Notes: a model not told the origin generated them from the sequence alone. Positions 128 to 22,374 are shown, counted from the first letter of the stretch. The stretch is 32,000 nucleotides of DNA from Aliivibrio fischeri ES114 (GCF_000011805.1 NC_006841.2); one strand, 5' to 3'. Made by a program: numbers and translations.

Positions 128-154
128 GTGATCTAACTCTCATTATAAGGCGTG
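128..154 (+). promoter_or_regulatory. ECF (ChrR-partnered sigma) type promoter candidate P1 upstream of the LysR gene
   Basis: GTGATCtaactctcattataaggCGTG. GTGATC at 128-133, exactly 17 nt spacer, CGT at 151-153. Lies 60 nt upstream of the ATG at 214. Same architecture as six other sites in the window. Confidence 0.45.
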
Positions 155-213
155 ATTTCAAAACGAATAGATGGCAAAATAGAACACATAAGACCTATAA
201 ATAGGACAATAAC

Positions 214-1101
214 ATGTACAAAAACCGTAAATCTTTGCCTTCATTTGATGATATTTATCTTTTTGTCCTTGTAGTAAGACACAAAGGGATAAGTGCTGCT
301 GCGCAATTCTCAGGCCTACAACGCTCGAAAGTCAGCCGTCGATTACAAGAATTAGAAAAGGCGTTAGGTCATCAATTATTAATCAGAACCACAAGATCAA
401 TTGAGTTAACCAAACAAGGAGAATGGTTATATCATCAAGCATCAAACCCAATTAACACCTTGGTTGACGCAAGTTTATTGATGAGAGATCACCATGTAAC
501 ACCAAGAGGAACATTAAGAGTAGCAATACCTCCTGCACTTGGTATGACAGAAGTATTCTCAACTCTTATTGAAAAATACATAGAAGAAAACACTGAGGTT
601 AAATTAGAAATTGAGCATCATGTTCAATCATTAGACTTACGCAGAAGCAATATAGACTTACAAATATTACCAAGTTACATCGAACCACTGCATAACGATT
701 ACATCCAACAACGTTTAATTCAAATCCCATATAGCATGGTTGCGTCTCCAAATTATTTACGTATTAATGGTCACCCAGATAACGTTACTCAGTTGGATCA
801 ATTCCATTTATTGGCAAGTCGATATAATAAAAGTTTATTGCCTCAAGGATTAAATTATCAACTATTTAGTGATGATCTGAATTTATTACAAAAATTAGCA
901 ATATCAGGAAAAGGGATCGCTTTACTGCCATCCATTCTAATTGAAGAAGATATTAAGCAAGGATTGCTTGTTGAAGTATTACCCAGAAAATCATTTACCG
1001 ATTTAACTATTACTCTAATTTATCCAACACCGCATTATTTACCTGAAAAAACACGAGCAATGGTAAATTTATTCAGAGCCACCTTCTCAGATTTACCTTA
1101 A
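214..1101 (+). CDS. LysR-family transcriptional regulator
   Basis: 295-aa ORF. N-terminal wHTH (FVLVVRHKGISAAAQFSGLQRSKVSRRLQELEKALGHQLLIRTTRSIELT) followed by a LysR substrate-binding domain. AGGA Shine-Dalgarno 8 nt upstream. Confidence 0.85.
   Translation: MYKNRKSLPSFDDIYLFVLVVRHKGISAAAQFSGLQRSKVSRRLQELEKALGHQLLIRTTRSIELTKQGEWLYHQASNPINTLVDASLLMRDHHVTPRGTLRVAIPPALGMTEVFSTLIEKYIEENTEVKLEIEHHVQSLDLRRSNIDLQILPSYIEPLHNDYIQQRLIQIPYSMVASPNYLRINGHPDNVTQLDQFHLLASRYNKSLLPQGLNYQLFSDDLNLLQKLAISGKGIALLPSILIEEDIKQGLLVEVLPRKSFTDLTITLIYPTPHYLPEKTRAMVNLFRATFSDLP
466..492 (-). promoter_or_regulatory. ECF-type promoter-like motif P2, antisense inside the LysR coding sequence
   Basis: Minus strand reads GTGATCtctcatcaataaacttgCGTC (GTGATC 492-487, 17 nt spacer, CGT 469-467). 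It points toward the minus-strand gene starting at 99. It could be a chance match. Confidence 0.3.
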
Positions 1102-1369
1102 AAATCAGCAAAATAACTGACAATCACTTAAATATTAGCATTTTAAATAGAATCGAAAATTAAAATGCTATGTTCTAGATTTTCGAGCAATATATTATTA
1201 ACCACATGAATAGGACGGGTTAGCAAAAACGGAAATAAATGTCCATAAATGCTACAACCTTTGTCTCAAAAATACGATTTTTTTGACAGTTTGTCAGAAA
1301 GATAACCAAATTTAGGGCACGTTATTTTTTATTATAACTACTCAACTAGCCCAAGTGAGCCCTAAATAT

Positions 1370-1409
1370 AAAGCCAATATCATCAAATGATATTGGCTTT
1401 ATTCTTTTT
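1370..1409. terminator. Rho-independent terminator in the convergent gap between the LysR gene and bioD
   Basis: Perfect 14-bp inverted repeat aaagccaatatcat / atgatattggcttt (1370-1383 and 1387-1400) with a 3-nt loop. Followed by attcttttta on the plus strand and atattt on the minus strand. Confidence 0.7.
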
Positions 1410-1431
1410 ACTTAAACAGTAAACTAAATAA

Positions 1432-2112
1432 TTAGTTATCTAGGGCTTCAAGATGAATGTATTTACCCATATTTTTGCGTTTCACACTTGGCATATATGG
1501 AATTTCACCTAATTTTGGCGCAGGCATTTTATCTTCTAGCATCTTAATGATTTCAGCGTAGTTTTCTGTACCTGGGTTTACTCGGTTAGCTACCCAACCA
1601 ATAATCTCTAAACCATCATGTTGAATCGCTTCAGCAGTTAGCATTGCATGACTTAAACAACCGAGTTTAATCCCAACAACCAATACCACTGGCAATTTTT
1701 CTTGCTGTACCCATGTTGATAAACAATCATCTTTAGATACAGGAACACGCCATCCACCGGCACCTTCAACTAAAACAACATCTGATTTCTCTTTTAATGA
1801 AGCTAAACCTTCAGATAATACGGAGTAATCAATAACCACATTTTCTGCTTCTGCTGCAATGTGTGGTGATGCAGGCATTAATAATGCATACGGGTTTACT
1901 TCTTCGTAGCGTAATTCAACATTGGCTACAGCACGTAAATGGATCGCATCAGAGTTTTGAACGCCTTCGCCTTTGTCTTCAGAGCCTGCTGCTACTGGTT
2001 TATAAGCAGCAGTTCGTAAACCTTTCATGTTTAACGCATCTAAAATCGCTTTTGAAGCAACGGTTTTACCCACATCTGTATCTGTTCCTGCAATAAAAAA
2101 TGCATCAATCAT
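1432..2112 (-). CDS. bioD: Dethiobiotin synthetase
   Basis: 226-aa ORF with the N-terminal nucleotide loop GTDTDVGKT. Last gene of the bioBFCD order. 8-nt overlap with bioC. Confidence 0.9.
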
Positions 2113-6604: not shown

Positions 6605-6814
6605 TTATTTAACTTTAGGCTCATTAGTAAAATCATCTTCTACTAACTTATAAATAATAAAGATAGCAAGCTCGAGTAATGCAGTAAGAATCAAGCTCAT
6701 GATCACGTAGCGCTCAGCAAAAACACCAATACCGTGTAAGATTGTTGATTGAATAACAAACGCGCCAACTACGCCTAAAATCAACAGCTGTAAAAATTTA
6801 ATAAACTTCAGCAT
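6605..6814 (-). CDS. Small hypothetical membrane protein (two predicted TM helices)
   Basis: 69-aa ORF, strongly hydrophobic (LLILGVVGAFVIQSTIL ... IMSLILTALLELAIFIIY). No family recognised. Confidence 0.45.
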   Translation of the reverse strand: MLKFIKFLQLLILGVVGAFVIQSTILHGIGVFAERYVIMSLILTALLELAIFIIYKLVEDDFTNEPKVK

Positions 6815-9152: not shown

Positions 9153-9179
9153 GTGATCCAAAACGCTTTTTAATTCGTT
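9153..9179 (+). promoter_or_regulatory. ECF (ChrR-partnered sigma) type promoter candidate P3 for ybgA-phrB
   Basis: GTGATCcaaaacgctttttaattCGTT (GTGATC 9153-9158, 17 nt spacer, CGT 9176-9178). About 30 nt upstream of the ybgA start. Confidence 0.55.
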
Positions 9180-9208: not shown

Positions 9209-10153
9209 ATGACTATTAATGTTGGCATCAGTTCTTGTGTTATCGGAGAAAGTGTTCGTTTTGATGGCGGCCACAAGAGCAATAAATTCGCATCAAAAGT
9301 ATTATCACCATATTTTAATTACATACCAATCTGCCCAGAAGTAGGAAGCGGTATGTCTGTACCACGACCAACCATTAGATTAATGACAAACGATGAACGC
9401 ATCGCCTTAGTTGATTCTAAGGATTCAAGTATTGATTACACGGATTCCATGCTTGAATTCTCAAATAAAACCGTTGATGCCCTGATGGATGCAGATCTAT
9501 GTGGTTACATTGTCTGTGCCAATTCACCAAGTTGTGGCATGGAACGCGTTAAAGTTTACAGTAAGAACAATGCCACTAAAAATGGCGTTGGCTTGTATAC
9601 CGGAACGCTAATGAAAAAAATGCCGTGGTTACCTGTTGAAGAAGACGGTCGATTAAATGATCCCGTTTTAAAAGAAAACTTCATTACACGTGTTTTTTGC
9701 TTACACGATTTATATCAGTCTATGGATGGACAACCTACAGCAGGAAAAATTGTCGCTTTCCATTCTCGTTATAAATACACATTAATGTCCCACTCTACTG
9801 TCGGCTATAAAAACCTTGGTAAATTGGTGGCTCGTGTTGCTGAATACGATATTCACGAATTTTTCAATCTATACCGAACTCAGCTGATGCAAACCATGAG
9901 TATTCGAGCTACCCGTAAAAATAACACCAACGTATTAATGCACTTACAAGGTTATTTCAAGAAAGATTTAGATTCACCTCAGAAGCAGGCTTTAGCTGAG
10001 CTCATTCAAGAGTATAATCAAGGGTTATTACCTTTATTGTCCCCTATCACTTTGATTAAACACCATTTAAGTATGCACAATAATGATTACTTAAAACAAC
10101 AATCCTTCTTAAACCCTTACCCACAAGAGCTAAGATTACGCTATGGATTATAA
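9209..10153 (+). CDS. ybgA: YbgA-like protein: N-terminal DUF523/TudS-like [4Fe-4S] domain plus C-terminal DUF1722
   Basis: Three conserved Cys contexts (SSCVIGESVRFDGGHK, ICPEVG, SPSCGM). Overlaps phrB by 11 nt, as ybgA-phr does in E. coli. Start placed at ATG 9209 (GGGGGA Shine-Dalgarno) rather than 9194. Confidence 0.75.
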   Translation: MTINVGISSCVIGESVRFDGGHKSNKFASKVLSPYFNYIPICPEVGSGMSVPRPTIRLMTNDERIALVDSKDSSIDYTDSMLEFSNKTVDALMDADLCGYIVCANSPSCGMERVKVYSKNNATKNGVGLYTGTLMKKMPWLPVEEDGRLNDPVLKENFITRVFCLHDLYQSMDGQPTAGKIVAFHSRYKYTLMSHSTVGYKNLGKLVARVAEYDIHEFFNLYRTQLMQTMSIRATRKNNTNVLMHLQGYFKKDLDSPQKQALAELIQEYNQGLLPLLSPITLIKHHLSMHNNDYLKQQSFLNPYPQELRLRYGL

Positions 10154-11582
10154 ACACAACTTACAATGTGTTTGGTTCCGACACGATTTGCGAACCATTG
10201 ATAACCCAGCATTACAGGCTGCTGTTGATAATCAGCAGCCTACTTTTGCTCTATTTATTTATTCTGAATCTCAATGGAAAAAACACAATAAAGCGCCGAT
10301 TCAAATCGATTTAATCAAAAGGCGGTTAGTGGAATTAAAAAATGAATTAGAGCAACTCAATATTCCGTTGATCGTTATTTCTAGCCCTTTATTTTCAGAG
10401 ATACCAGCAAAGATAACAGCGCTATTTAACGAACTCAGTGTTAATGCATTATTTGCAAACAAAGAATACGAGCATGATGAACGACTTCGTGATACTCAAG
10501 TATACGAATCATTACTCAATACAAACTGCTATTTTTTCGACGCCAAATGCATACTACCCGTTGGTACTATCATTAATCGAACTCAGCAGCCTTATAAAGT
10601 GTTCACGCCATTTAAAAAAGCGTGGAAAGCCTCGTTTTATCAACAACAGCCACACATTACCAAAACCGGGAAATCCGTTCTGTGTGATCCCAAATTGATT
10701 AAAAAGCTATCCCTAAATAATGATGACTCTTTTGTTTTTTCATCTTCAAATGAAAGTGGAAGTTGGCCGGTTTCGACAAAAGCAATTATTGATATATTAC
10801 GTCAATTTTGCCGTCAAAAAGTAAGCCAATACCATAACAATCGAGATTATCCCGAGATACAAGGCACAAGTCAGTTATCCCCTTATTTGGCCATCGGCGC
10901 TATATCAGCAAAGCAATGCGCGTTGCGTTTACACTTAGAAGCGAATTATGAATTAAATCAAGGAGAAGACATTTGGCTTGATGAGTTAATATGGCGTGAA
11001 TTTTATACGCACCTACTTCATTTTTATCCTAATTTATCAAAAAACCAGGCATTTCTTTCTTATGATAAATACATTGAGTGGGATAACAACCTAGACCATT
11101 TTGAACGCTGGTGTAAAGGTGAAACGGGCTTCCCGATTGTTGATGCAGCAATGAAACAGTTAAATACCACAGGTTGGATGCATAACCGATTACGCATGAT
11201 CACCGCCAGTTTTCTAGTTAAAGATTTACACATTGATTGGCGTTGGGGCGAACAATACTTTATGTCAAAGTTAATTGATGGTGATTTTGCATCGAACAAT
11301 GGTGGTTGGCAATGGTGTGCGTCTGTTGGATGTGACAGTTCTCCTTACTTTCGCATCTTTAATCCAATAACTCAGGGGAAAAAGTTTGATGCAGATTGCA
11401 CCTTTATTAAGCATTGGCTTCCTGAATTAAAAGCGCTGAGCAACAAGGAAATTCACCATCCTAATCCTGCACCGTTATTGAAATCGGATAACTATCCTGA
11501 TCAAATTGTTGATCACGCTCAGCAAAGAATCAAAGTTATCGAGGTTTATAAGCAGGCAAAACAACTGGATATTGCAAGTTAA
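10143..11582 (+). CDS. phrB: Deoxyribodipyrimidine photolyase (class I CPD type)
   Basis: 479-aa ORF with the N-terminal photolyase domain (WFRHDLRTIDNPAL) and the FAD-binding domain (WREFY, TGFPIVDAAMKQL..TGWMHNRLRM, GGWQW). Confidence 0.9.
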   Translation: MDYKHNLQCVWFRHDLRTIDNPALQAAVDNQQPTFALFIYSESQWKKHNKAPIQIDLIKRRLVELKNELEQLNIPLIVISSPLFSEIPAKITALFNELSVNALFANKEYEHDERLRDTQVYESLLNTNCYFFDAKCILPVGTIINRTQQPYKVFTPFKKAWKASFYQQQPHITKTGKSVLCDPKLIKKLSLNNDDSFVFSSSNESGSWPVSTKAIIDILRQFCRQKVSQYHNNRDYPEIQGTSQLSPYLAIGAISAKQCALRLHLEANYELNQGEDIWLDELIWREFYTHLLHFYPNLSKNQAFLSYDKYIEWDNNLDHFERWCKGETGFPIVDAAMKQLNTTGWMHNRLRMITASFLVKDLHIDWRWGEQYFMSKLIDGDFASNNGGWQWCASVGCDSSPYFRIFNPITQGKKFDADCTFIKHWLPELKALSNKEIHHPNPAPLLKSDNYPDQIVDHAQQRIKVIEVYKQAKQLDIAS

Positions 11583-13486: not shown

Positions 13487-13511
13487 ACGCTAGAAAACTA
13501 GCTTGGGGAAA

Positions 13512-13649: not shown

Positions 13650-13763
13650 CTATCATTTCCTTATTTGAGTATATGAGTGTTCTGATTATACAAACCTGCT
13701 ATGACATTACTGTGACAGAGTTAAAACTACCATTCTGTAAATTTTAAATTCATTACACATACT

Positions 13764-13798
13764 GAGAATGATTCTTATTTATATTGATAATCATTTCC
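13764..13798. promoter_or_regulatory. Tandem Fur boxes upstream of the ChaN-family gene
   Basis: 13780-13798, tatattgataatcatttcc, matches 15/19 of GATAATGATAATCATTATC. 13764-13782, gagaatgattcttatttat, matches 12/19. Lies 44 nt upstream of the ATG at 13842. Confidence 0.65.
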
Positions 13799-13841
13799 AT
13801 TTAACCTAAGCTATAGGTTTGTTATCTAATGAATTCTTATT

Positions 13842-14789
13842 ATGAAATCCACACCACTACTGTCACTTATTTCATTACTGCTTTTGTCAGGATGTAGTCA
13901 AAACATTCACCAAAAGGCTGACGTTGAACCTTCTGTAGAGAGCTTTTACGATTACCAACTGCTTTCTCCTAGTAGTGACGTCATTGCCCTTACCTCTCTA
14001 CCTGATGAAATACGCAATGCTGATGTTGTTTTAATTGGTGAATGGCACACACATGCAGGTGTTCATCGTTTCCAAACGGATTTATTTAAACAATTAGTAC
14101 AGGAAAACCCAAATTTAGCGTTATCAATGGAACAATTTACCCGTGATAAACAAGATATTCTCACTCAATATCTCTCAGGGGAAATTGGTGAACAGACCTT
14201 AATGAAAGAAGCGAACGCTTGGCCAAATTATGAAAGTGATTACCGTCCGTTAGTTGAATTAGCCAAATTTTATCAACGTGATGTTATTGCATCAAACGCG
14301 CCAAAACCGATTGTAAAATGCATCGGTCAGCAAGGTATTGGTTATCTCGACAAACTCAATGACACCGAGCGTACATGGCTTGCCGCTAACATAGATACGG
14401 CTGATTCTGCATATAAAACGAAATTCTTTAATTCAATGCACCATGGAGATGAATCTCAAACCAAAAAACAGTATGCCGCTCAAATAACATGGGACGCAAC
14501 TATGGCTGAAAGCATTGTTAACTACATCGATCAGCACCCAAATTCACAAGTCGTGCATATTGCTGGTAAATTCCATATTGAAAACGGATTAGGTACTGCA
14601 GCGCAGATTCTAAAACTTAATCCAAACCTGAACGTGGTTGTAGTGACACCAACTGAAACGATAAGCCCAGAGAGTAAAGATTATCAATTAAAGGTATTAA
14701 CACCGCCTAAGCGTTTCGTTAAAAAAGAGAACATGATGAACGCTTATAAAGATCTAAAAAACCGTAACAAAGATCTGGTGTGTAAATAA
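13842..14789 (+). CDS. ChaN-family (haem/iron-associated, Tiki-superfamily) lipoprotein
   Basis: Lipobox LLLLSGC at the N-terminus. Has VVLIGEWHTH and later HIAGKFH motifs typical of ChaN-like proteins. Fur boxes upstream. Confidence 0.65.
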   Translation: MKSTPLLSLISLLLLSGCSQNIHQKADVEPSVESFYDYQLLSPSSDVIALTSLPDEIRNADVVLIGEWHTHAGVHRFQTDLFKQLVQENPNLALSMEQFTRDKQDILTQYLSGEIGEQTLMKEANAWPNYESDYRPLVELAKFYQRDVIASNAPKPIVKCIGQQGIGYLDKLNDTERTWLAANIDTADSAYKTKFFNSMHHGDESQTKKQYAAQITWDATMAESIVNYIDQHPNSQVVHIAGKFHIENGLGTAAQILKLNPNLNVVVVTPTETISPESKDYQLKVLTPPKRFVKKENMMNAYKDLKNRNKDLVCK

Positions 14790-14798
14790 TCATAAAAA

Positions 14799-14853
14799 AA
14801 ACCACCTACCTTTGACGGGGGAGTAAAAAGGTAAGTGGTTTTGGTATTTTTTT
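14799..14853. terminator. Bidirectional Rho-independent terminator between convergent genes
   Basis: aaccacctaccttt-gacgggggagtaa-aaaggtaagtggtt (one mismatch). Flanked by an A-run on the left and ttggtattttttt on the right. Confidence 0.8.
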
Positions 14854-14859
14854 AGTGCG

Positions 14860-15378
14860 CTATTTTCGGATAACAAGTACGACTTCCCCGACTTGTATTC
14901 CCCATTTATAAATGGCGGTTTGATTGATCACCACTGACTCTGATATTTGATAAATCCAATCATCAAATTCCACTTCATACTGTGAATCATCCACCTCCAA
15001 TACCATGGCATATTTCCAATGTAGCGCATTACCTGCACTCTCTCCGGTGGCTTGTTCAAGGATGTCATTGGCTTTTCCTGTATAGGTTTGGTTACCTAAA
15101 TCTTGAATAACCCAAGTGCGATTTTGTTTTTCGCCATCGTTAAATAAAAACTGTTCATCTAACGTTAATGTGTTTTCTTTCCAACTGGCTTGCAAATCAA
15201 CCGTGAATGTTCTTACTACTTTGCCATCAAATCCTTTTACTATTCCCTCTGCTTTTAAGTCACCTTGAAAAAACGCTTTCATTGAAAATGACGGGGTTAC
15301 TTCAGCGTAATCACTAATCTCTTGAGATGAACACCCCATTAAAACGAAACTGAGCAGCACAAAAATAAGCTTTTTCAT
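14860..15378 (-). CDS. DUF3833-like lipoprotein (lipocalin-like), last gene of the operon
   Basis: Start placed at MKKLIFVLLSFVLMGCSS (lipobox), giving a TAATG 1-nt overlap with the upstream gene. The ORF-track N-terminal extension is rejected. Confidence 0.6.
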   Translation of the reverse strand: MKKLIFVLLSFVLMGCSSQEISDYAEVTPSFSMKAFFQGDLKAEGIVKGFDGKVVRTFTVDLQASWKENTLTLDEQFLFNDGEKQNRTWVIQDLGNQTYTGKANDILEQATGESAGNALHWKYAMVLEVDDSQYEVEFDDWIYQISESVVINQTAIYKWGIQVGEVVLVIRK

Positions 15379-15881
15379 TACTCGGCTCCTATCAGTTCTA
15401 ATCGCAGGTCGGGATACGTTGTTTTTTCTGACACCCAAATATCCAAGAACAGCTGTGAGAAATCGGAATTTGCGATGCTTCCTATGGGTTTATTGTTTAA
15501 AAAGAATTCGTTGGTTCCGTTTTCATCAATAGTAAATACAAGTTTATCTTCTGGTTTCACATCAGGAAAAACGTTCTCTAATTGCTCTAACCAACTATTT
15601 AAGTCTGGATGGTTGATGGCTTGTTTTTGCCATTGCTCTTTTGTCGCTTTTATTAAGTTTTCTTTGGATATATTACGGTAATACTCGATTTCTAAGGCCT
15701 GTGGGTATTCACCATAAGTAAATTGACCTGATGAAGTAAAAAGTTGTGCCTGATAAACTGAAATGAGATACCAAGTTAATTCCGATTTACCGCTACTTTC
15801 TAACCCAGATAATGGCGCGGATTGAACACTACTTGTTATTAACAACCCCGCTAGAATGAGCATGTTGATTTGCTTCGCCAT
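15378..15881 (-). CDS. Secreted chalcone-isomerase-like family protein
   Basis: 167-aa ORF with signal peptide MAKQINMLILAGLLITSSVQSAP and a strong GGGGGAG Shine-Dalgarno. The family assignment rests on the recurring position of a CHI-like gene in this conserved cluster and on general sequence character. Confidence 0.5.
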   Translation of the reverse strand: MAKQINMLILAGLLITSSVQSAPLSGLESSGKSELTWYLISVYQAQLFTSSGQFTYGEYPQALEIEYYRNISKENLIKATKEQWQKQAINHPDLNSWLEQLENVFPDVKPEDKLVFTIDENGTNEFFLNNKPIGSIANSDFSQLFLDIWVSEKTTYPDLRLELIGAE

Positions 15882-16398
15882 GTGAACTCCCCCTTTCCTG
15901 TATTCTTTGATTTATTCGTTTCTGAATAATAATAAATACGGGTAAATTGACAGCCCAGATCACCGCAACAGCAAATAAAGTGATATTTAATGAATAGACA
16001 AACTCAACGCCGCCAAGTCGTTGTCCTGCGAGATAGTTTAAAGGCCCCGCAATGGCACCAAATAAAGAGATAGCGACGATATGAAAACGATTTAACCATT
16101 TCAAGCTGTGGTTTAAAGCAATAGAGAAGTGAGCCCAAATCATAATTAACCAAATAGGAATAATGGCATTATTGGCAAAAGAAAAGATATCGATTAACGA
16201 TAAGAAGGAATCACTAATAACACCAATAATACCAATAACCGTGATCATCATGGCATCTTGTTTTCGACTTGGTGATACCCACAAATGGATCAATACAGAA
16301 AGTAATAAAAAAGGAATGGCTTGCTGCTTGTAAATAATGGCAGCAAGCCAGGCAAGCTGAAACCACACGGCATTAATCAGAGGGAAATAACGTTGCAT
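15829..16398 (-). CDS. Integral membrane protein, DUF2878-like
   Basis: 189-aa ORF with about five hydrophobic helices. Its 3' end overlaps the next gene by 53 nt. Confidence 0.5.
   Translation of the reverse strand: MQRYFPLINAVWFQLAWLAAIIYKQQAIPFLLLSVLIHLWVSPSRKQDAMMITVIGIIGVISDSFLSLIDIFSFANNAIIPIWLIMIWAHFSIALNHSLKWLNRFHIVAISLFGAIAGPLNYLAGQRLGGVEFVYSLNITLFAVAVIWAVNLPVFIIIQKRINQRIQERGSSHGEANQHAHSSGVVNNK
15937..15963 (-). promoter_or_regulatory. Internal ECF-type promoter candidate P4, inside the DUF2878 CDS
   Basis: Minus strand GTGATCtgggctgtcaatttaccCGTA (GTGATC 15963-15958, 17 nt spacer, CGTA 15940-15937). About 55 nt upstream of the CHI-like start at 15881. Confidence 0.5.
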
Positions 16399-16483
16399 GG
16401 CAGCCTCCTAAACAATAATTTGCAAACATTAATCTATAAAAATCACTTGCAAAAAACTTTACTAACAATCTATATCAATGGAC

Positions 16484-17740
16484 TTAAACAACACCATGTT
16501 GTGGTTTTGCGGCAACAAGGTGAACAGTACTGATTTTTCTTTCAAGAAATCCACCCTCGCAATAACATAAATAGAATTTCCAAAGACGAATAAAGTCATC
16601 ACCATATCCCATCTCTTTTAACTCACCGGCAGATTTATCAAAACGTTGATACCAATGATTCAATGTTTTGGCGTAATCCAACCCAATATCATGCAATGAA
16701 GTGATCACCATATCCGTGTTCTCAGCCACTTTATTTGCCATGACACTCACTGAAGGTAAACACCCACCAGGGAAAATGTATCGCTGAATAAAATCAACAC
16801 TCTTACGGTATTTGTCATAACGTTGGTCAGAGATGGTAATTGCTTGAATAAGCATCTTTCCTTCCGGCTTTAAATGCTGGCTACACACATCAAAGAAAGT
16901 GCTTAAATATTCGTGTCCTACTGCTTCTATCATTTCAATCGACACTAACTTGTCGTATTGACCTTCTAACGTACGGTAATCTTGTTTTAACAAGGTAATT
17001 GAATCTTCCAAACCCAACTGTTTCACTCGCTGCTCGGCATACTCGTATTGAGCGTCTGATATGGTTGTGGTTGTGACTTTTACACCATAATTCTGTGCAG
17101 CATAAATGGCTAATGCTCCCCAGCCTGTTCCGATCTCAAGAAGAGTTTCACCGGGTTTTAGCTCCAAACGCTCACAAATGGTTTGTAACTTAAATAACTG
17201 AGCTTCTTCCAAATTGGCTTCTTGATGTGGATAAATGGCACTTGAATACAGCATTTCTTTATCAAGGAACGTTTTATACATTTCATTCCCTAAATCATAA
17301 TGAGCCAGTATGTTTTTCTTCGATCCATGCTCAGTATTTTTATTGCGTTTATGATTTAACAAATCAAAAAATTGGATAATTTTACTAAAACTGTTTTCAA
17401 CTCTGTCTAACACGCCCTGCTCACGACCTAACACTTGAATCACTTTGGTTAAGTTCGGACTTGTCCACCATCCAGCAACATAGGCTTCGCTGGCACCGAT
17501 ACCACCACCGAACAAAATTTTTCGATACGCTTGCGTATTATGAATCTCCACAACGGCTTCTAACGTTGCATCTGGATTTCCTAAAGTGACTTGGCCAATT
17601 GGATCGTAAATTGTTAAAGATGCTTGAGACATTTTTCCTAAGTAGTCAATTAACACCTTTCTTGCCAGACCATCAATCCAACTTACAGGTTCTACTTGTT
17701 GATTTTCTATCGAAACAGAATTGATTTGATTATTAGACAT
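16484..17740 (-). CDS. Cyclopropane-fatty-acyl-phospholipid synthase family SAM-dependent methyltransferase
   Basis: SAM motif LLEIGTGWGALA and CMAS-family C-terminal region (FIQRYIFPGG, YLCYCEGGF). Start placed at ATG 17740 (MSNNQ...), preceded by GGGGAA. Confidence 0.85.
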   Translation of the reverse strand: MSNNQINSVSIENQQVEPVSWIDGLARKVLIDYLGKMSQASLTIYDPIGQVTLGNPDATLEAVVEIHNTQAYRKILFGGGIGASEAYVAGWWTSPNLTKVIQVLGREQGVLDRVENSFSKIIQFFDLLNHKRNKNTEHGSKKNILAHYDLGNEMYKTFLDKEMLYSSAIYPHQEANLEEAQLFKLQTICERLELKPGETLLEIGTGWGALAIYAAQNYGVKVTTTTISDAQYEYAEQRVKQLGLEDSITLLKQDYRTLEGQYDKLVSIEMIEAVGHEYLSTFFDVCSQHLKPEGKMLIQAITISDQRYDKYRKSVDFIQRYIFPGGCLPSVSVMANKVAENTDMVITSLHDIGLDYAKTLNHWYQRFDKSAGELKEMGYGDDFIRLWKFYLCYCEGGFLERKISTVHLVAAKPQHGVV

Positions 17741-17748
17741 GGTTCCCC

Positions 17749-18501
17749 CTACTTTTCTGGATGAGGCACAAACGGTATTCGTTTTAAGCATAATTTCAGT
17801 GCCTGCCAGTAAATTCCATATACTATCTTTACGGTCATCATCGGAATTGAGATCACTTGTTGTTTAATATTTTTTGAATTAAACGGCTTTCTTGTCATCG
17901 AAATGGTCGCATCAAAGATTTTTTCTTGGTTTTTATCCAGACCACGATTTTCTAAATGCAATGAGAGGTGTTTATTGGGGGCTTTAACGAACCAATGATA
18001 TTTCATCTCTAAGTTTAAAAATGGCGAGACATGAAAAGCTTTATCAATGATTTTATCGGAATCCATTTCGATTAAATAATAATGGGTTTGATTCCATGGC
18101 GTATTACTCACTTCCGCTAACAAATAAGTCAATTGGTCATTTTTGTCGTAACAATAATACAAATTAATTGGACTAAAATAGACGCCAAAACAGCGTACTT
18201 GGCCAACAAATAAAACTCGTGTTTGAAGTGATAAACCACCAAGCTCTTCCACTTTATCCCACACCGCTTGTTTTAACGGTTGCTCTGCCTTACCAAGATA
18301 ATCTGAACGGCGAAATGACAACGGTGAAAAGCGATTTTTCCTAAACCACCCAACGGACTCTGTTTGCTCTAACTCATCAAGATCTAAAGCAATAAAAAAC
18401 ATTTCATAGCTAAAACTGTGCTCACGAGTTTGAAAACGGCGATGTCTAACATCACCGTGATAAATACAGGAATGGATCAAATCTGCTTGATGCACACTCA
18501 T
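17749..18501 (-). CDS. DUF1365 family protein
   Basis: N-terminus IYHGDVRHRRF..REHSFSYEMFFIALDLDEL is typical of DUF1365. Start at ATG 18501 gives an ATGA overlap with the upstream stop codon. Confidence 0.7.
   Translation of the reverse strand: MSVHQADLIHSCIYHGDVRHRRFQTREHSFSYEMFFIALDLDELEQTESVGWFRKNRFSPLSFRRSDYLGKAEQPLKQAVWDKVEELGGLSLQTRVLFVGQVRCFGVYFSPINLYYCYDKNDQLTYLLAEVSNTPWNQTHYYLIEMDSDKIIDKAFHVSPFLNLEMKYHWFVKAPNKHLSLHLENRGLDKNQEKIFDATISMTRKPFNSKNIKQQVISIPMMTVKIVYGIYWQALKLCLKRIPFVPHPEK
17830..17856 (-). promoter_or_regulatory. Internal ECF-type promoter candidate P5, inside the DUF1365 CDS
   Basis: Minus strand GTGATCtcaattccgatgatgacCGTA (GTGATC 17856-17851, 17 nt spacer, CGTA 17833-17830). 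About 90 nt upstream of the methyltransferase start at 17740. Confidence 0.5.
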
Positions 18502-19757
18502 AAACTTATCCCAAAGCGTTGGCACACATCTAACGCACTTCTTACTCCATCTTCATGGAATCCGTTGTACCAATAAGCACCAGCAAAGTGTGTATGATTA
18601 TGTCCACACACTTCTTCTCTACGTTGCTGAGCTTCTAATGTATCTAAATTAAATACTGGGTGATCGTATTTATACATTCCTAATATTTTGTCTTTATGAA
18701 TAAGCGGTGAATTATTCAACGTCACGCAAAAGGTGGTTTCTTTGGTTTCTAGACCTTGAAGAATATTCATATTATAGGTCACGCTAGAAGGACGATTTTT
18801 GTCGGTCACATCCAAATGATAATTCCATGCTGCCCATGCTCGCTTTTGCATAGGTAACAAGCTTTCATCCGTATGCAGCACCACTTCATTCTCTTGATAA
18901 GTCAGTTTAGACAGAACTTCTTTTTCTTGCTCTGAAATATCCGTTAGCATCGCTAGCGATTGGTCACTATGACAAGCTAAAATCACCTCATCAAATTCAT
19001 GCTCATGCTGATTATCAATGGTTAATGTCACTCCATTATCATGACGAACCACACCAGTAACTGGACTGTTAAGATGGATATTATCTTTAAATGACTCAAT
19101 CAAAGGGGCGATATAAGAATGCGAACCATTAGGAATAACATACCATTGTGGACGATTTGCTATGTCCAATAACCCATGATTATGGAAAAAACGAACAAAG
19201 AAATGCAACGGGAAGCTTTTCATATCTTGCAGGCTAGATGACCAAATTGCGGCTCCCATCGGTAAGATATAATGCTCAGCAAAATAGGTACTGTAACCAT
19301 CTTCGTGCAGCATATCACCCAAGGTACAGTCAGCATCAATATGCTCTTTATGCCATAAAGCTTTACATTGTTTATTAAAACGTAGAATTTCGCTAATCAA
19401 TGAGAGAAATTTAGTATTAAAAATATTTGAACGTTGAGCAAATAACGTATTTAAATTATGTCCATTATATTCCAAACCTGAGATCACGTTTTTTACACTA
19501 AAACTCATTTCTGTTTCTTGCCCAGATAAGCCAAGTTGAGTTAACAGCTCAATAAAATTTGGATAAGTTCTATTATTAAAAACGATAAATCCAGTATCAA
19601 TATCCCACTCTTTTCCTTCTGCTTTTACTGTTTTTGTTGCAGTATGCCCACCAATGTAATCATTGGCTTCAAATACAGTAACTTGATGCTCTCGACTTAA
19701 TAAATGTGCACAAACTAAGCCCGAAATACCTGTTCCAACTACGGCAATTTTTTTCAT
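18498..19757 (-). CDS. NAD(P)/FAD-dependent oxidoreductase (amine-oxidase / desaturase-like flavoprotein)
   Basis: Rossmann dinucleotide motif MKKIAVVGTGISGL...VTVFEANDYIGGHT at the chosen start 19757. ATGA overlap with the SDR stop codon. Confidence 0.8.
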   Translation of the reverse strand: MKKIAVVGTGISGLVCAHLLSREHQVTVFEANDYIGGHTATKTVKAEGKEWDIDTGFIVFNNRTYPNFIELLTQLGLSGQETEMSFSVKNVISGLEYNGHNLNTLFAQRSNIFNTKFLSLISEILRFNKQCKALWHKEHIDADCTLGDMLHEDGYSTYFAEHYILPMGAAIWSSSLQDMKSFPLHFFVRFFHNHGLLDIANRPQWYVIPNGSHSYIAPLIESFKDNIHLNSPVTGVVRHDNGVTLTIDNQHEHEFDEVILACHSDQSLAMLTDISEQEKEVLSKLTYQENEVVLHTDESLLPMQKRAWAAWNYHLDVTDKNRPSSVTYNMNILQGLETKETTFCVTLNNSPLIHKDKILGMYKYDHPVFNLDTLEAQQRREEVCGHNHTHFAGAYWYNGFHEDGVRSALDVCQRFGISL

Positions 19758-20494
19758 TTTCGTTTCATCCTTAAAGCCATCCATTGCCAAATACACGAAG
19801 GAAGTGCCCCCATCAAGATGAGAAAACGAGTAAAAGGAAATGGAAAATGAATGTGTTGTTTATTGTTATTAATTCCATTAATAATGTGATCTGCGGCTTT
19901 ATCCGGCTCTATCAACATTGGCATGGGGAAATCATTTTTATCTGTTAATGGTGTTTTTACAAAACCAGGGGCGATAACACTGATGGTTAATCTTTCTTTT
20001 GGTATATCCAATTGCAGTGATTGCGCTAAATAATGAATAGCAGCCTTACTTGCTCCGTAAGCTTCAGCACGTTGAAAGGGAACAAAAGCAGCACTTGATC
20101 CCATTAATGCAAGATGACCTTTTTGTTTCATTTTAGGAAGTAACGCTTGCAAGCAATAACCTATAGATATCACATTAGTATTGATGACTCGCTCAAATAG
20201 CTCAGCGTCAAATCCCATTGCATCATCAATGTATTCACAGGTGCCAGCATTAAGAATCGCAATATCTAAAGACTCAACCTCGGTAAGTACATCTATAATT
20301 GCATCATGGTGATTCATATCAAATACAATTTTAACTAACTTATCACTCTTCTCTGCATCAATAAGCGACGATGATTTTAGGTACGCTTGGAAATTACGAC
20401 CACACGCATATACTTTGTCACCTGCTTGTAGGTATTTTTCAACTAAAGAAAGTCCAATTCCGGAAGTGGCTCCTGTGATTAATACATTTCTCAT
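19754..20494 (-). CDS. Short-chain dehydrogenase/reductase (SDR)
   Basis: TGATSGIG cofactor motif and the YGASK catalytic motif. ATGA overlap with the upstream gene. Confidence 0.85.
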   Translation of the reverse strand: MRNVLITGATSGIGLSLVEKYLQAGDKVYACGRNFQAYLKSSSLIDAEKSDKLVKIVFDMNHHDAIIDVLTEVESLDIAILNAGTCEYIDDAMGFDAELFERVINTNVISIGYCLQALLPKMKQKGHLALMGSSAAFVPFQRAEAYGASKAAIHYLAQSLQLDIPKERLTISVIAPGFVKTPLTDKNDFPMPMLIEPDKAADHIINGINNNKQHIHFPFPFTRFLILMGALPSCIWQWMALRMKRK

Positions 20495-20931
20495 GCTTGC
20501 ACCCTCTTTTTAATGAACTTAACCATAGGGCCAATAAGAGGCAAATGCTCGTAAACCATTTGTCCCATATCAAGAAAATCTCTGTGATAAAAAACTTTAT
20601 CATTGAATTTAATATGAGAGACACCTTCAACACTGATGCTTTTACCTTTACCTATTTTTGGATGTTTATAATTCATTGTCCAAAAAAGCGTCGCTTCACC
20701 TTGTGTTAAATTAATATCTTCAATTACATGATGGATGGTAAATTTACATTCAATAAGATTCGTGTACAGATGTGTGAAGTAGTCGGTTAGTTCATCAATT
20801 CCATTGATTTCGTGAACAGCATCAATGAACTGAACATCATAAGAATAGATTTCTGAGAGATGATGCAGTGTATGTTTGTTTAGCCCGCCGTATAAAGCGA
20901 TAAATTTTTGAATAAAGCCAGAATGATCCAT
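20491..20931 (-). CDS. NTF2/SnoaL-like small protein, first gene of the operon
   Basis: Start placed at ATG 20931 (MDHSGFIQKF...) with AAGGAAG 7 nt upstream. About 146 aa, with alpha+beta-barrel-like sequence character. Confidence 0.55.
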   Translation of the reverse strand: MDHSGFIQKFIALYGGLNKHTLHHLSEIYSYDVQFIDAVHEINGIDELTDYFTHLYTNLIECKFTIHHVIEDINLTQGEATLFWTMNYKHPKIGKGKSISVEGVSHIKFNDKVFYHRDFLDMGQMVYEHLPLIGPMVKFIKKRVQA

Positions 20932-20967
20932 ATCTGTACTTCCTTTTATCTTAGTCATACACCTATA

Positions 20968-20994
20968 TACGCTTAGTGAAATATAAAAGATCAC
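20968..20994 (-). promoter_or_regulatory. ECF-type promoter candidate P6 for the eight-gene operon
   Basis: Minus strand GTGATCttttatatttcactaagCGTA (GTGATC 20994-20989, 17 nt spacer, CGTA 20971-20968). About 37 nt upstream of the ATG at 20931. Confidence 0.6.
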
Positions 20995-21013
20995 ATCCTG
21001 TGATCTTTTATAT
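20981..21013. repeat. Perfect 15-bp palindrome (3-nt spacer) between chrR and the operon
   Basis: atataaaagatcaca-tcc-tgtgatcttttatat. On the minus strand it forms a hairpin followed by a U-rich tract, a possible chrR terminator. Its downstream arm (as transcribed on the minus strand; lower plus-strand coordinates) contains the -35 of P6. Confidence 0.7.
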
Positions 21014-21033
21014 TCATTATTTAAGTATGGTTG

Positions 21034-21723
21034 CTAATACAATAAATTTCCAATTGGATTGAATAACTTACTTAGCCCTTGTTTAAAGTATAGTGGTGCA
21101 TTTTGAACCGTGTAACACAAACAACCTTCTGACGTTTTAGGGCTGTGACTATTTGATGCGTCTAGCCAAATAAAATCCCCTTTTTGATAATGACCGGATT
21201 CATCTTCAAAGCTGCCATCGAGTAATAGGGTTAACTCAAATCCTTTGTGAGTATGATGAGGAATTTCACCACCGGGCTTAATATGAAGCAAGTTAGACCG
21301 AGTGTCTTGTTCCTCATTTAAACGAGTTCGACTCACTGCACCTAAATGGTTCCATTTTAAGTTGTCGTATCGATGTAAAATGTAAGGAAGCTGGTATTCT
21401 TTATCATCAATAAATAATGTGTATACAGGCTCTGGGGCTAAATGAGTAGGCTCTATTTCTAATGCCATGATATTAGCCAGCATAGAGTCGAAACCATCAC
21501 TGTCAATTGCTTTCTCATTGGCATCTTTTTCTTCTTTACTGCCTGTTGAATCCCATGTTTTGCTCGCAAGACGATTGGTAATAGCATCAAGTTTCTTTTG
21601 ACACTGTGGACATAATTCACAGTGTAATGAAATAGCCACCGCTAATGATTCGGGTAAATCACCATTTGCATGAGAACTCAAAAGCTCATCTTTGGGATGG
21701 TAAGTGATCTTATTCATGCTCAT
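21034..21723 (-). CDS. chrR: ChrR-family anti-sigma factor (zinc-binding ASD plus C-terminal cupin)
   Basis: H-x3-C-x2-C motif in SLHCELCPQC. C-terminal cupin (GGEIPHHTHKGFELTLLLDGSF...GDFIW). Overlaps the sigma gene 3' end by 14 nt. Confidence 0.85.
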   Translation of the reverse strand: MSMNKITYHPKDELLSSHANGDLPESLAVAISLHCELCPQCQKKLDAITNRLASKTWDSTGSKEEKDANEKAIDSDGFDSMLANIMALEIEPTHLAPEPVYTLFIDDKEYQLPYILHRYDNLKWNHLGAVSRTRLNEEQDTRSNLLHIKPGGEIPHHTHKGFELTLLLDGSFEDESGHYQKGDFIWLDASNSHSPKTSEGCLCYTVQNAPLYFKQGLSKLFNPIGNLLY

Positions 21724-22321
21724 ACTCCTGACGCAATTTAGTTAACGCTAAGCGTAATCGAGATTTTATCGTTCCTATTGGCTCTGCAAGCTGTTCAGAT
21801 AACTCTTGCTGAGTTAGCCCTTGCACATATAGTCCTTCAATAACAATTCGTTGAGGTAATGGTAATAGCATGAGTGCTTTTTCAAGATTCTTATTCTCGA
21901 GGAAATCAACCGAATTGGTTTCAACTTGTTTGTCATATAGTGGCCACAAATCCTCACTAATTGTATCTTCTTTATTAGTTTGAATTTTTCTTAACATATC
22001 GAAGCTATGGTTACGCATGATAGTAAAAATCCAACCTGAGGCATTGCCTTTACTACGGTTGAATAATGTGGCTTTTCGCCAAACTAACGTCATAGTTTCT
22101 TGAACTAAGTCCATTGCTAGACTTTGATCATTAAATCGTTTTAAACCATACATTTTGATCTTAGGAGCAAACCACTTAAAAAGCTCAGCGAATGCAACTT
22201 TATCTTGCGTCTCACCGACTTTTCTTAACCAAGAATCTATTTGAACCGAACTGTCTTTGTCACTGTTCGGTCTATCTGCAATGCTCACTCGAGTGACAAC
22301 CTCTACCTGTTGAATATGCAT
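21710..22321 (-). CDS. ECF sigma-70 family sigma factor partnered with ChrR (R. sphaeroides RpoE-like group)
   Basis: Region 2 (DLVQETMTLVWRKATLF) and region 4 HTH (GLTQQELSEQLAEPIGTIKSRLRLALTKLR). GAGGGAG Shine-Dalgarno. Translationally coupled to chrR. Confidence 0.88.
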   Translation of the reverse strand: MHIQQVEVVTRVSIADRPNSDKDSSVQIDSWLRKVGETQDKVAFAELFKWFAPKIKMYGLKRFNDQSLAMDLVQETMTLVWRKATLFNRSKGNASGWIFTIMRNHSFDMLRKIQTNKEDTISEDLWPLYDKQVETNSVDFLENKNLEKALMLLPLPQRIVIEGLYVQGLTQQELSEQLAEPIGTIKSRLRLALTKLRQEYEHE

Positions 22322-22347
22322 ATTGACTCCCTCTATTTTTTATCTAT

Positions 22348-22374
22348 TACGAGAGAGAGAATAAAAAAGATCAC
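22348..22374 (-). promoter_or_regulatory. ECF-type autoregulatory promoter candidate P7 for sigma-chrR
   Basis: Minus strand GTGATCttttttattctctctctCGTA (GTGATC 22374-22369, 17 nt spacer, CGTA 22351-22348). About 27 nt upstream of the ATG at 22321. Confidence 0.6.

Follow-up and report, generated by a model that had tools for sequence, protein, structure and literature searches.

The 32,000-nt stretch of Aliivibrio fischeri ES114 analysed here (the window) carries on its minus strand an ECF sigma factor gene, a chrR-type gene sharing 14 nt with the end of the sigma gene, and an eight-gene operon. A ybgA-phrB pair and a lysR gene, the latter divergent from an MFP-DUF2955 efflux operon, lie on the plus strand (Table 1). 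The sigma factor, 98% identical to the A. fischeri protein and named rpoE4 in V. fischeri (PMC2330054), has only the sigma-2 and sigma-4 domains of group IV factors (Pfam Sigma70_r2 and r4_2) and scores 342 bits against NCBIfam NF008890 (cutoff 284). Its partner scores 202 bits against TIGR02451 (cutoff 124.5) and combines an N-terminal zinc anti-sigma domain with a C-terminal cupin domain, the arrangement found in the co-transcribed, cytoplasmic ChrR proteins of ECF11 systems. The closest solved relatives of both proteins are those of the founding ECF11 pair, sigma-E/ChrR of Rhodobacter sphaeroides (2Q1Z_A, E = 6e-31; 2Z2S_B, E = 5e-20). The zinc HxxxCxxC ligands and the cupin His/His/Glu ligands are conserved and align with 2Z2S_B as H-CELC-PQC and HTHKGFE. 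Judged by these features, this is a true ECF11 RpoE-ChrR pair.

The eight-gene operon includes UfaM-like, UfaD-like and UfaO-like genes; UfaM, UfaD and UfaO act in furan fatty acid synthesis (PMC7380195). In strain MJ11, the genes VFMJ11_A0882-A0891, annotated as ChrR, sigma factor, SDR, amine oxidase, CFA synthase and lipoprotein, shift in one shared direction in the transcriptome of a binK mutant (PMC5466423). The phrB product is a photolyase by NCBIfam NF007955 (539 bits, cutoff 506).

Table 1. Features of the rpoE4-chrR region, with predicted promoters and motif matches
Feature	Position	Strand	Basis
GTGATC-N17-CGT matches	128-153, 9153-9178	+	exact search of window
GTGATC-N17-CGT matches	492-467, 15963-15938, 17856-17831, 20994-20969, 22374-22349	-	exact search of window
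lysR(+) site, doubtful, GTGATCT-N16-CGTG	128..154	+	upstream of lysR ATG at 214
lysR antisense site, GTGATCT-N16-CGTC	466..492	-	inside lysR codons 85-93
Predicted ybgA-phrB promoter, GTGATCC-N16-CGTT	9153..9179	+	exact search, conservation
ybgA (DUF1722/2-thiouracil-desulfurase-like) and phrB photolyase	9209..11582	+	Pfam
Eight-gene operon (SnoaL/furan-fatty-acid)	14860..20931	-	Pfam
Operon genes 1-4: SnoaL, SDR, amine-oxidase-like (UfaD-like), DUF1365 (UfaO-like)		-	Pfam
Operon genes 5-8: CFA-synthase-like methylase (UfaM-like), DUF2878, chalcone-isomerase-like, DUF3833		-	Pfam
Predicted intra-DUF2878 promoter, codons 146-154, GTG ATC ... CCC GTA	15937..15963	-	synonymous-site conservation
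Predicted intra-DUF1365 promoter, last 36 codons, GTG ATC ... ACC GTA	17830..17856	-	synonymous-site conservation
Predicted SnoaL/eight-gene operon promoter, GTGATCT-N16-CGTA	20968..20994	-	exact search, Aliivibrio conservation
Perfect 16-bp inverted repeat AATATAAAAGATCACA-TCC-TGTGATCTTTTATATT	20980..21014	.	between chrR stop and SnoaL promoter
ChrR-type zinc anti-sigma factor	21034..21723	-	TIGR02451, Pfam Cupin_7
ECF11 sigma factor RpoE4	21710..22321	-	Pfam Sigma70_r2 and r4
Predicted rpoE4-chrR autoregulatory promoter, GTGATCT-N16-CGTA	22348..22374	-	exact search, homologous loci

An earlier note on this DNA had listed seven copies of GTGATC-N17-CGT and read them as a local ChrR/sigma regulon. 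All seven are recovered at the listed coordinates by exact search, with the sequences as quoted, T after GTGATC at six of the seven sites and CGTA as the -10 element at four. In dinucleotide shuffles the pattern occurs 0.09 times on average and at most once, against seven times in the window. The spacing is specific: with x in TGATC-Nx-CGT set from 14 to 20, the matches number 0, 1, 1, 7, 2, 2 and 1, the 17-nt spacing thus giving seven and the other spacings 0-2 each. GTGATC itself is commoner in the window than expected (30 vs 11.4), and CGT follows at offset 17 in 7 of the 30 hexamers, leaving 23 rather than "about a dozen" that lack it. At the remaining offsets from 0 to 100, CGT occurs 0.26 times on average and at most twice, and the enrichment at offset 17, conditional on the 30 hexamers, has a binomial P of 1.3e-8. 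Six copies face a gene on the same strand, as proposed; the copy at 492(-) lies antisense inside lysR.

The seven 17-nt spacers have no sequence in common, only the 9-10 motif bases being shared; the sites are therefore not copies of one element and lack the likeness over their whole length that marks a dispersed repeat or mobile element. It is highly improbable that the motif represents such a repeat, a Dam/SeqA GATC feature or a site bound by a dimeric regulator instead of an ECF promoter. The excess of GTGATC, the Dam GATC within all seven sites and the fact that GTGATC at the SnoaL promoter forms half of a perfect palindrome would suit such an origin, but the spacers differ, the palindrome is confined to that one site and accompanied there by terminator features, and the constant 17-nt gap before CGT and the gene-facing orientation suit a two-element promoter. 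Moreover, in relatives the same two elements have been mapped by experiment as promoters (PMC4336711, PMC5507510). Nor do the seven sites resemble sigma-70 promoters in consensus scans of positions 1-600 and 9000-22600 for TTGACA-N16-18-TATAAT-like sequences: a single weak match (9 of 12, 15953-15926) overlaps the intra-DUF2878 site, none occurs at the other six, and such matches are fewer overall than in shuffles.

The motif is genuine and corresponds to the promoter signature published for ChrR-controlled ECF11 stress sigma factors, given as TGATC(C/T)-N16-CGTA for Shewanella, Pseudomonas syringae and Vibrio cholerae (PMC4336711, PMC5507510, PMC5241685). Its elements and spacing match experimentally mapped ones, bearing out the earlier reading of it as the architecture of ChrR-partnered ECF promoters. 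Of 80 loci encoding homologues of the sigma factor, 69 have TGATC-N17-CGT upstream of the sigma gene; in these autoregulatory promoters TGATC is always followed by C or T, and the fourth -10 position holds A in 63, T in 6 and never G or C. A weight matrix built from 64 non-fischeri genomes, in which the training sites score at least 14.4 bits, was then run over the window; only its flanking and variable positions provide independent information because the training sites had been chosen with the core regex. Five of the sites are exactly the top five matches in the window, and other Aliivibrio species keep these five at orthologous positions. We consider it well supported by these comparisons that the five copies, two of them within coding sequence, are RpoE4 promoter sites.

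The strongest match, at 26.1 bits, is the putative autoregulatory promoter of rpoE4-chrR, its -10 element lying 26 nt from the ATG at 22321; TGATC(C)-N16/17-CGTA before the sigma gene is the typical arrangement of ECF11 autoregulation. The predicted SnoaL promoter (17.3 bits), 36 nt before the SnoaL ATG at 20931, is kept in Aliivibrio and reads GTGAAC-N17-CGTA in the A. finisterrensis group. Its -35 GTGATC is at the same time the downstream arm of the inverted repeat, which probably serves rpoE4-chrR as an intrinsic terminator. The core of this repeat, AAAAGATCAC-N5-GTGATCTTTT, is preserved across all Aliivibrio, the A. finisterrensis group retaining it in the changed form GGTCAC..GTGAAC. The site upstream of ybgA-phrB (10.9 bits, 29 nt from a probable ATG at 9209) is kept in L086 and reads GTGAACC-N16-CGTT at the same position in L085 and L087; GTGAAC is its -35 element in the A. 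salmonicida group. Its CGTT -10 also occurs in 6 of the 69 autoregulatory promoters. We assume that RpoE4 tolerates both the GTGAAC and the CGTT variants.

The two internal entry points that had been proposed for the eight-gene operon are upheld by synonymous-site conservation. The site inside DUF1365 precedes cfa, which has a probable ATG at 17740 and the Shine-Dalgarno sequence GGGGGA. It is invariant in 12 Aliivibrio sequences, four wobble bases included (P = 0.0027), although it is spelled in minority codons; given the peptide, the motif would arise with a chance of 0.003. The site inside DUF2878, 55 nt before the ATG of the CHI-like gene at 15881, is invariant in 12 Aliivibrio and 4 Psychromonas sequences. 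Only six degenerate codons are fully invariant and four of them are motif codons (P = 1.8e-4); the motif codon CCC accounts for 8% of Pro codons, and the motif has a chance of 0.001 given the peptide. Wobble bases are invariant in only 15-24% of comparable codons, compared with all four at both intragenic sites.

Could the intragenic matches be by-products of conserved peptides (V-I ... T/P-V), with the SnoaL promoter alone driving the operon? Both fall within conserved stretches of protein, in frame 1, DUF2878 has an invariant VIW..LPV, and the scores of the two matches (9.3 bits in DUF1365, 11.7 in DUF2878) are below the training minimum. Against this stand the wobble invariance and rare codons described above, and the absence of the DUF1365 site from Psychromonas, where the amino acids differ as well (L F ... 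L). In addition, the DUF2878 site is found in the metagenomic relatives L093-L097, and in L093 the C of CGTA is retained even though the Pro codon has become Cys (TGC). In L098 and L107 the motif is placed upstream of DUF2878 instead, showing that in other lineages these genes have a sigma-E promoter of their own. We therefore regard a by-product origin as unlikely and favor embedded promoters, although some other nucleotide-level reason could in principle account for their conservation.

The lysR sites are another matter. Their membership in the regulon, as claimed for the first LysR gene and its antisense, fails on the -10 element, whose fourth base is G or C where ECF11 promoters have CGTA or, rarely, CGTT. 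The lysR(+) site lies 59 nt before the ATG, a position and spacing that fit a promoter, and its elements are unchanged in four other Aliivibrio-type sequences (L085, L087, L089 and L092) in which the spacer varies; L091 has lost the -35, and L086 the -10 as well. It scores 3.8 bits (rank 11, among chance matches). It also overlaps an invariant minus-strand TATAAT (147 to 142) that faces the divergent efflux operon and is probably part of a sigma-70 promoter; this element and a CGTGAT(C/T) direct repeat confound the conservation of the site. At best, lysR(+) would be a weak, lineage-specific addition to the regulon. The antisense site falls outside the top 16 weight-matrix matches in the window and lies about 366 nt from the next same-strand ATG, that of the membrane-fusion-protein gene (window 99). 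It is present in A. fischeri only (the window, L081-84 and L092), other orthologues reading GATGC..GAGCAAC or similar, and is most likely a chance match.

If all seven sites were functional RpoE4 promoters, the lysR sites would drive converging transcription units, one sense and one antisense, and would tie the LysR regulator and the divergent efflux operon to the photo-oxidative stress response. Both sites have the exact spacing, G before TGATC and T after it, and they flank the 5' end of the same gene. Once the five good sites are removed, the remaining 25 GTGATC hexamers should give 0.24 chance matches and give two (P about 0.03), an excess that leaves us not fully comfortable in dismissing them. 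Nevertheless, CGTG and CGTC occur in none of the 69 autoregulatory promoters, the -10 elements listed for P. syringae and S. oneidensis are all CGTA (PMC5507510, PMC4336711), the scores are at noise level and the antisense site is missing from all non-fischeri orthologues, so that we consider it unlikely that the regulon extends to all seven. Given the non-canonical -10 bases, the noise-level scores and the absence of the antisense site from other Aliivibrio, the sequence comparisons amount to five solid sites, one doubtful (lysR(+)) and one probably due to chance. Of the seven-site local regulon first proposed, the five sites supported by other genomes stand and the two LysR sites do not.

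We thus propose, with a probability of about 0.85, that five of the seven copies are promoters of the RpoE4 holoenzyme within a local ChrR regulon, on the basis of the sequence matches, family membership, cross-species conservation and synonymous-site constraint observed here. RpoE4 would recognize a -35 TGATC(C/T) and a -10 CGT(A/T) located 17 nt after TGATC. Published work in relatives points to singlet oxygen, blue light, organic peroxide or NO as what inactivates ChrR; RpoE4 dependence, transcription start sites and inducing signals in A. fischeri are inferred. Freed RpoE4 would transcribe five units: its own rpoE4-chrR operon, creating positive feedback; the eight-gene operon with the furan-fatty-acid enzymes UfaD, UfaO and UfaM; cfa/ufaM and the genes after it, starting from the promoter within the 3' end of DUF1365; the CHI-like gene and DUF3833, starting from the second embedded promoter, in the 3' end of DUF2878; and ybgA-phrB. 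The sites before ybgA-phrB, SnoaL-...-ufaD-ufaO, cfa and CHI-like/DUF3833 place genes of the known core ECF11 regulon (PMC6852236, PMC7380195) under this predicted control.

R. sphaeroides and A. fischeri have in common an autoregulated operon, a photolyase target, ufaD, ufaO and ufaM (PMC6852236, PMC7380195). In R. sphaeroides, the locus tag of ufaM (RSP2144) is far from the RSP1087-1091 operon (PMC7380195), whereas the A. fischeri furan-fatty-acid genes form one eight-gene cluster adjoining the regulator, with additional predicted promoters embedded in coding sequence. A. fischeri, unlike R. sphaeroides, is not phototrophic, and no second-tier sigma factor of the rpoHII type was seen within the window.

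The RpoE2-ChrR system of S. oneidensis has the identical architecture, TGATCC-N16-CGTA(A/T)T, with mapped starts, and its targets include ybgA-phrB, in one ybgA-phrB-cfa operon under a single promoter (PMC4336711). The A. fischeri sigma factor shares 52% identity with Shewanella homologues. TGATC is mostly followed by C in Shewanella but by T at six of the seven sites here, and pgpD and a Lon-domain protease, which belong to the Shewanella regulon (PMC4336711), were not seen here. For PSPTO_1043 of P. syringae, ChIP-seq and qRT-PCR gave the consensus TGATCC-N16-CGTA, with autoregulation and the phrB-led PSPTO_1121-1114 cluster as a target; the extended regulon is much larger and includes katG, a diguanylate cyclase and a bacteriophytochrome (PMC5507510). 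The promoter table consulted from that study lists no promoters within genes. Another member of the Vibrionaceae, V. cholerae, has a ChrR/sigma-E blue-light regulon in which ChrR-controlled induction of a photolyase (cry1) by blue light or NO was demonstrated. The motif used there, TGATC-N16-18-CGTAW, is much looser than the exact N17 found here because two mismatches and variable spacing were allowed (PMC5241685, PMC11976125). The 80 closest sigma homologues include no Vibrio sequence; those of Psychromonas and Shewanella are closer.

The local RpoE4-ChrR regulon read from this sequence is a correct rediscovery of one that was already known. To this picture the locus makes modest additions, namely promoters that appear to be embedded within genes and a probable terminator hairpin that overlaps a -35 element.

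The pattern GTGATC-N17-CGT, reported at seven positions in the earlier note, was recovered at all of them by exact search of the window. Dinucleotide-preserving shuffles gave 0.09 matches on average and never more than 1, and the note's own estimate of 0.1-0.2 chance occurrences was sound. The preference for a 17-nt spacer is sharp: for spacers of 14 to 20 nt, TGATC-Nx-CGT occurs 0, 1, 1, 7, 2, 2 and 1 times in the window, and the four window matches to GATC-N17-CGTA all belong to the seven-site set. The hexamer GTGATC is itself commoner than chance (30 copies on both strands versus 11.4 expected from shuffles), and a stricter null was therefore conditioned on the hexamer. CGT stands at offset 17 after 7 of the 30 hexamers (binomial P = 1.3e-8), whereas at all other offsets from 0 to 100 it occurs with a mean of 0.26 and a maximum of 2. 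Together, the shuffles, the spacing scan and the offset scan from 0 to 100 rule out a chance origin of the set. Sigma-70 promoters were rejected as an explanation of the sites because consensus scans gave no convincing match there.

A search allowing one mismatch returned 11 matches in the window, with 5.2 expected; the four extra matches are intragenic or in the wrong orientation, and none was added to the regulon. The GTGATC hexamers that do not form motif sites number 23, not the dozen or so counted previously, and include two GTGATCAC palindromes. GATC as such (101 sites in the window) is not enriched, and the enrichment of GTGATC is a flanking-base bias.

The sigma factor RpoE4 matches the NCBIfam equivalog NF008890 with 342 bits (cutoff 284). 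Its top match among solved structures is R. sphaeroides RpoE (2Q1Z, E = 6e-31), and it is 98% identical to the sigma factor of A. fischeri strain emors.2.1. Its partner matches TIGR02451, 'ChrR family anti-sigma-E factor', with 202 bits (cutoff 124.5) and contains the cupin domain of ChrR; in its alignment with R. sphaeroides ChrR (2Z2S_B, E = 5e-20), both the zinc motif HxxxCxxC and the His/His/Glu ligands of the cupin line up. These matches uphold the ChrR-partnered ECF sigma pair proposed from the sequence. In V. fischeri the gene has been named rpoE4, and its annotation as a ChrR-partnered sigma factor is by homology only (PMC2330054).

The architecture that the earlier note gives for ChrR-group promoters agrees with published motifs. 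RpoE2 promoters of S. oneidensis read TGATCC-N16-CGTA(A/T)T, with mapped starts for rpoE2 and pgpD and with ybgA-phrB-cfa as one listed target (PMC4336711), the ChIP-seq consensus of P. syringae PSPTO_1043 is TGATCC-N16-CGTA (PMC5507510), and the motif in a V. cholerae study is TGATC-N16-18-CGTAW (PMC5241685). Promoter models for ECF11 sigma factors, together with sigma/promoter activity across species, have also been published (PMC3817407). Because TGATCC-N16-CGTA equals TGATC-N17-CGTA, the spacing in the window matches the published one exactly.

Of 80 sigma-homologue loci, drawn from Aliivibrio, Psychromonas, Shewanella, Motilimonas and Idiomarina, 69 carry TGATC-N17-CGT just 5' of the sigma gene. 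In these 69 promoters TGATC is followed by C (48) or T (21) and never by a purine, the -10 element has A (63) or T (6) as its fourth base and never G or C, and a G precedes TGATC in 39. A weight matrix trained on 64 unique non-fischeri sites was applied to every window position on both strands. Its five best matches are the predicted promoters of rpoE4-chrR, the SnoaL operon and ybgA-phrB and the two sites inside DUF1365 and DUF2878 (see the table); below them comes a gap, and then a run of clearly spurious one-mismatch matches from 6.3 to 2.0 bits. The motif set thus correctly rediscovers the ECF11 promoter together with its core regulon.

Features of the window, with genes mapped from Pfam and NCBIfam scans; the promoters are predicted, and the distance runs between the -10 element and the likely start codon
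Feature	Coordinates	Strand	Likely start codon	Distance (nt)	Matrix position and score (bits)
Divergent efflux operon, start codon	99				
lysR intergenic region (114 bp)	100-213				
lysR(+) site	128-154	+			3.8 (rank 11)
TATAAT hexamer	142-147	-			
CCTAT-AA-ATAGG palindrome	190-201				
lysR	214-1101	+			
lysR(-) site	492-466	-			
GTGATCAC palindromes	2624-2631; 16701-16708				
bioDCFB and bioA					
Small ORF	about 6605-6814	-			
GNAT gene					
TyrR-like sigma-54 activator	7527-9074	-			
TGTCAAAATATGTTTACA	9097-9114				
ybgA-phrB promoter	9153-9179	+	ybgA ATG 9209	29	9154(+), 10.9
ybgA-phrB	9209-11582	+			
PhoD-like and ChaN genes					
SnoaL, SDR, amine-oxidase-like, DUF1365, CFA-synthase-like, DUF2878, chalcone-isomerase-like (CHI-like), DUF3833	20931 down to 14860	-			
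Intra-DUF2878 promoter	15963-15937	-	CHI-like ATG 15881	55	15962(-), 11.7
Intra-DUF1365 promoter	17856-17830	-	cfa ATG 17740 (strong Shine-Dalgarno)	89	17855(-), 9.3
SnoaL promoter	20994-20968	-	SnoaL ATG 20931	36	20993(-), 17.3
Inverted repeat	20980-21014				
chrR	21034-21723	-			
rpoE4 (ECF sigma gene)	21710-22321	-			
rpoE4-chrR promoter	22374-22348	-	rpoE4 ATG 22321	26	22373(-), 26.1

At these five supported sites, the gaps between the -10 element and the likely start codon are ordinary. In the other Aliivibrio species examined (67-71% identity between sigma proteins), the sigma and SnoaL promoters are both found in the orthologous place. The A. finisterrensis group has no exact match to the SnoaL promoter, and GTGAAC-N17-CGTA occupies the same position. 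The ybgA promoter reads GTGATCC-N16-CGTT in the comparison locus L086 and GTGAACC-N16-CGTT in the A. salmonicida-type loci L085 and L087. Its occurrence at both the SnoaL and the ybgA promoters of relatives makes TGAAC a recurrent natural -35 variant. Promoters that are conserved in other respects carry GTGAAC instead of GTGATC in L085 and L087 (ybgA; A. salmonicida-type) and in L004, L005, L006 and L009 (SnoaL; A. finisterrensis-type), which suggests that a TGAAC -35 is tolerated; with this change, the Dam GATC site disappears from the -35 element.

The chrR stop codon is followed, ahead of the SnoaL promoter, by a perfect inverted repeat of 16 bp with a loop of 3 nt. The arm on the downstream side coincides with the -35 GTGATC of that promoter, and a T-run comes next. 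All Aliivibrio keep the repeat core, AAAAGATCAC-N5-GTGATCTTTT; in the A. finisterrensis group the repeat persists in a changed version, GGTCAC..GTGAAC. On the simplest reading, the hairpin would be an intrinsic terminator of rpoE4-chrR that overlaps the next promoter.

The internal entry points into the lipid operon suggested in the earlier note find support in synonymous-site constraint. Both intragenic motifs lie in frame 1, as GTG ATC ... ACC GTA in DUF1365 and GTG ATC ... CCC GTA in DUF2878. The DUF2878 motif is unchanged across 12 Aliivibrio and 4 Psychromonas sequences, and adjacent synonymous positions vary freely; only 6 of 39 degenerate codons with an invariant amino acid are nucleotide-invariant, and 4 of the 6 are motif codons (hypergeometric P = 1.8e-4). 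The DUF1365 motif is invariant across 12 Aliivibrio sequences (P = 0.0027) and absent from Psychromonas, where the amino acids also differ. The motifs are written in codons that are in the minority in this genome (CCC is 8% of Pro, ATC 22% of Ile, and GTG 23% and GTA 25% of Val), and the probability of the codon choice given the peptide is 0.001 for DUF2878 and 0.003 for DUF1365. A metagenome scan with a DUF2878 profile (63 loci) placed the embedded site in five further Aliivibrio/Psychromonas-like contigs and only in that clade; distant homologues in the scan have no embedded motif, and two other lineages (L098 and L107) carry it 5' of DUF2878 rather than inside. In one of the five contigs, L093, Cys (TGC) stands in place of Pro, and the C of CGTA is still kept. 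Invariance, minority codons and the retention in L093 argue for selection on the DNA itself as what maintains both intragenic motifs.

In Psychromonas, ybgA-phrB directly follows chrR. The SnoaL-operon promoter there, and in Idiomarina (L064), lies within the 3' end of the phrB coding sequence (L012 11230-11255, L014 7526-7551, L016 13461-13486, L064 7863-7838), a third case of a coding-embedded ECF11 promoter. Another A. fischeri strain (L001, 15493-15518) has a full TGATC-N17-CGTA within cfa, where the window reads TGACC (16829-16804); this strain-specific match is probably meaningless.

The earlier note had also included the first LysR gene and its antisense in the regulon, and here it does not hold. 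In the flanking sequence, an operon for a membrane fusion protein (MFP; EmrA/AaeA-like), DUF2955 and Glycos_trans_3N runs divergently from lysR. The lysR(+) site lies between the two, 59 nt 5' of the lysR ATG; its -10 is CGTG, and its matrix score falls inside the spurious run. Among eight orthologous loci compared, the site is kept with a changed spacer in L085, L087, L089 and L092 (a 3%-divergent A. fischeri variant), has lost its -35 in L091 and has lost both elements in L086. This conservation has other possible grounds, since the site overlaps an ATTATA invariant in all loci, which on the minus strand is a perfect sigma-70 -10 hexamer directed at the efflux operon, and since CGTGATC and CGTGATT, 25 bp apart, make up a direct repeat. 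As an RpoE4 site, lysR(+) is, on a rough estimate, doubtful. The CCTAT-AA-ATAGG palindrome and a conserved CGAATAGATGGCAAAATAG block near the hexamer may be LysR boxes.

The lysR(-) site is antisense in lysR codons 85-93, has CGTC as its -10 and occurs only in A. fischeri, all other orthologues reading GATGC...GAGCAAC or similar. It is absent from the top 16 matrix matches over the whole window and both strands. Among the 25 hexamers left after the supported sites, 0.24 chance matches are expected and two are observed (P about 0.03); one would be unremarkable, and lysR(-) is probably such a match. Given the matrix scores, conservation and chance statistics, neither lysR site is counted in the regulon. 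A motif search on CGT alone over-calls sites, and the fourth -10 base counts.

The window has a G+C content of 37.6%. Between the TyrR-like activator gene and ybgA, TGTCAAAATATGTTTACA is conserved in L085-L087, and we take it to resemble a TyrR box (TGTAAA-N6-TTTACA). A small ORF (68-70 aa) without a Pfam match lies between bioA and the GNAT gene and is conserved in all Aliivibrio loci (equivalent to 16392-16601 in L081-L087). UfaD, UfaO and UfaM, which in Rhodobacter together produce the furan fatty acid 9M5-FuFA (PMC7380195), have their counterparts here in the amine-oxidase-like, DUF1365 and CFA-synthase-like proteins, respectively.

By analogy with relatives, ChrR would sequester RpoE4 and would be inactivated by singlet oxygen, blue light, peroxide or NO (PMC6852236, PMC5241685, PMC11976125). 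Free RpoE4 would drive its own operon, the furan-fatty-acid cluster via three nested promoters, and ybgA-phrB. Family membership, exact promoter architecture, cross-species conservation and synonymous-site constraint are the observed basis for this scheme. In placing photolyase and furan-fatty-acid synthesis under one predicted switch, A. fischeri is like Rhodobacter, Shewanella, Pseudomonas and V. cholerae. Expression data for A. fischeri were found only in a binK-mutant transcriptome and bear on the regulon indirectly: the MJ11 genes VFMJ11_A0882-A0891, with annotations including sigma factor, ChrR, SDR, amine oxidase, CFA synthase and lipoprotein, shift in one shared direction (PMC5466423).

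We give roughly a one-in-eight chance (about 0.12) to the joint reading that the ECF11 regulon reaches LysR via CGTG, includes an antisense switch in A. fischeri and comprises three nested furan-fatty-acid units. If this were true, the LysR extension would be common to A. fischeri and its closest relatives, and the antisense promoter would belong to A. fischeri alone. From its place inside lysR, that promoter would fire in the direction of the MFP-DUF2955 efflux operon; stress would thereby trigger a sense/antisense switch able to bypass or antagonise LysR control of the pump. Separately, the nesting promoters would be encoded in rare codons within two genes for membrane proteins.

In the literature searched, the regulon is uncharacterised in A. 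fischeri and the sigma factor is annotated by homology only; an earlier prediction of the exact sites is possible. Dufour et al. (2008), whose survey reportedly covered many gamma-proteobacteria, may have listed these promoters already. What is added here is the pair of predicted codon-embedded promoters, the overlap of a probable terminator with a -35 element, and the finding that the lysR extension does not hold.

The result is a map, defined by sequence, of the predicted regulon through which RpoE4-ChrR would respond to photo-oxidative stress in A. fischeri, which confirms the known picture, overturns nothing and will not surprise a specialist. Its practical yield is five promoter fragments usable in reporters, alongside a terminator whose downstream arm would double as the -35 of the following promoter. 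DUF1365 and DUF2878 would add two clear cases in which selection on synonymous sites maintains promoters in coding sequence. A. fischeri is a light-producing symbiont, and responses to light and oxidants are relevant to its biology.
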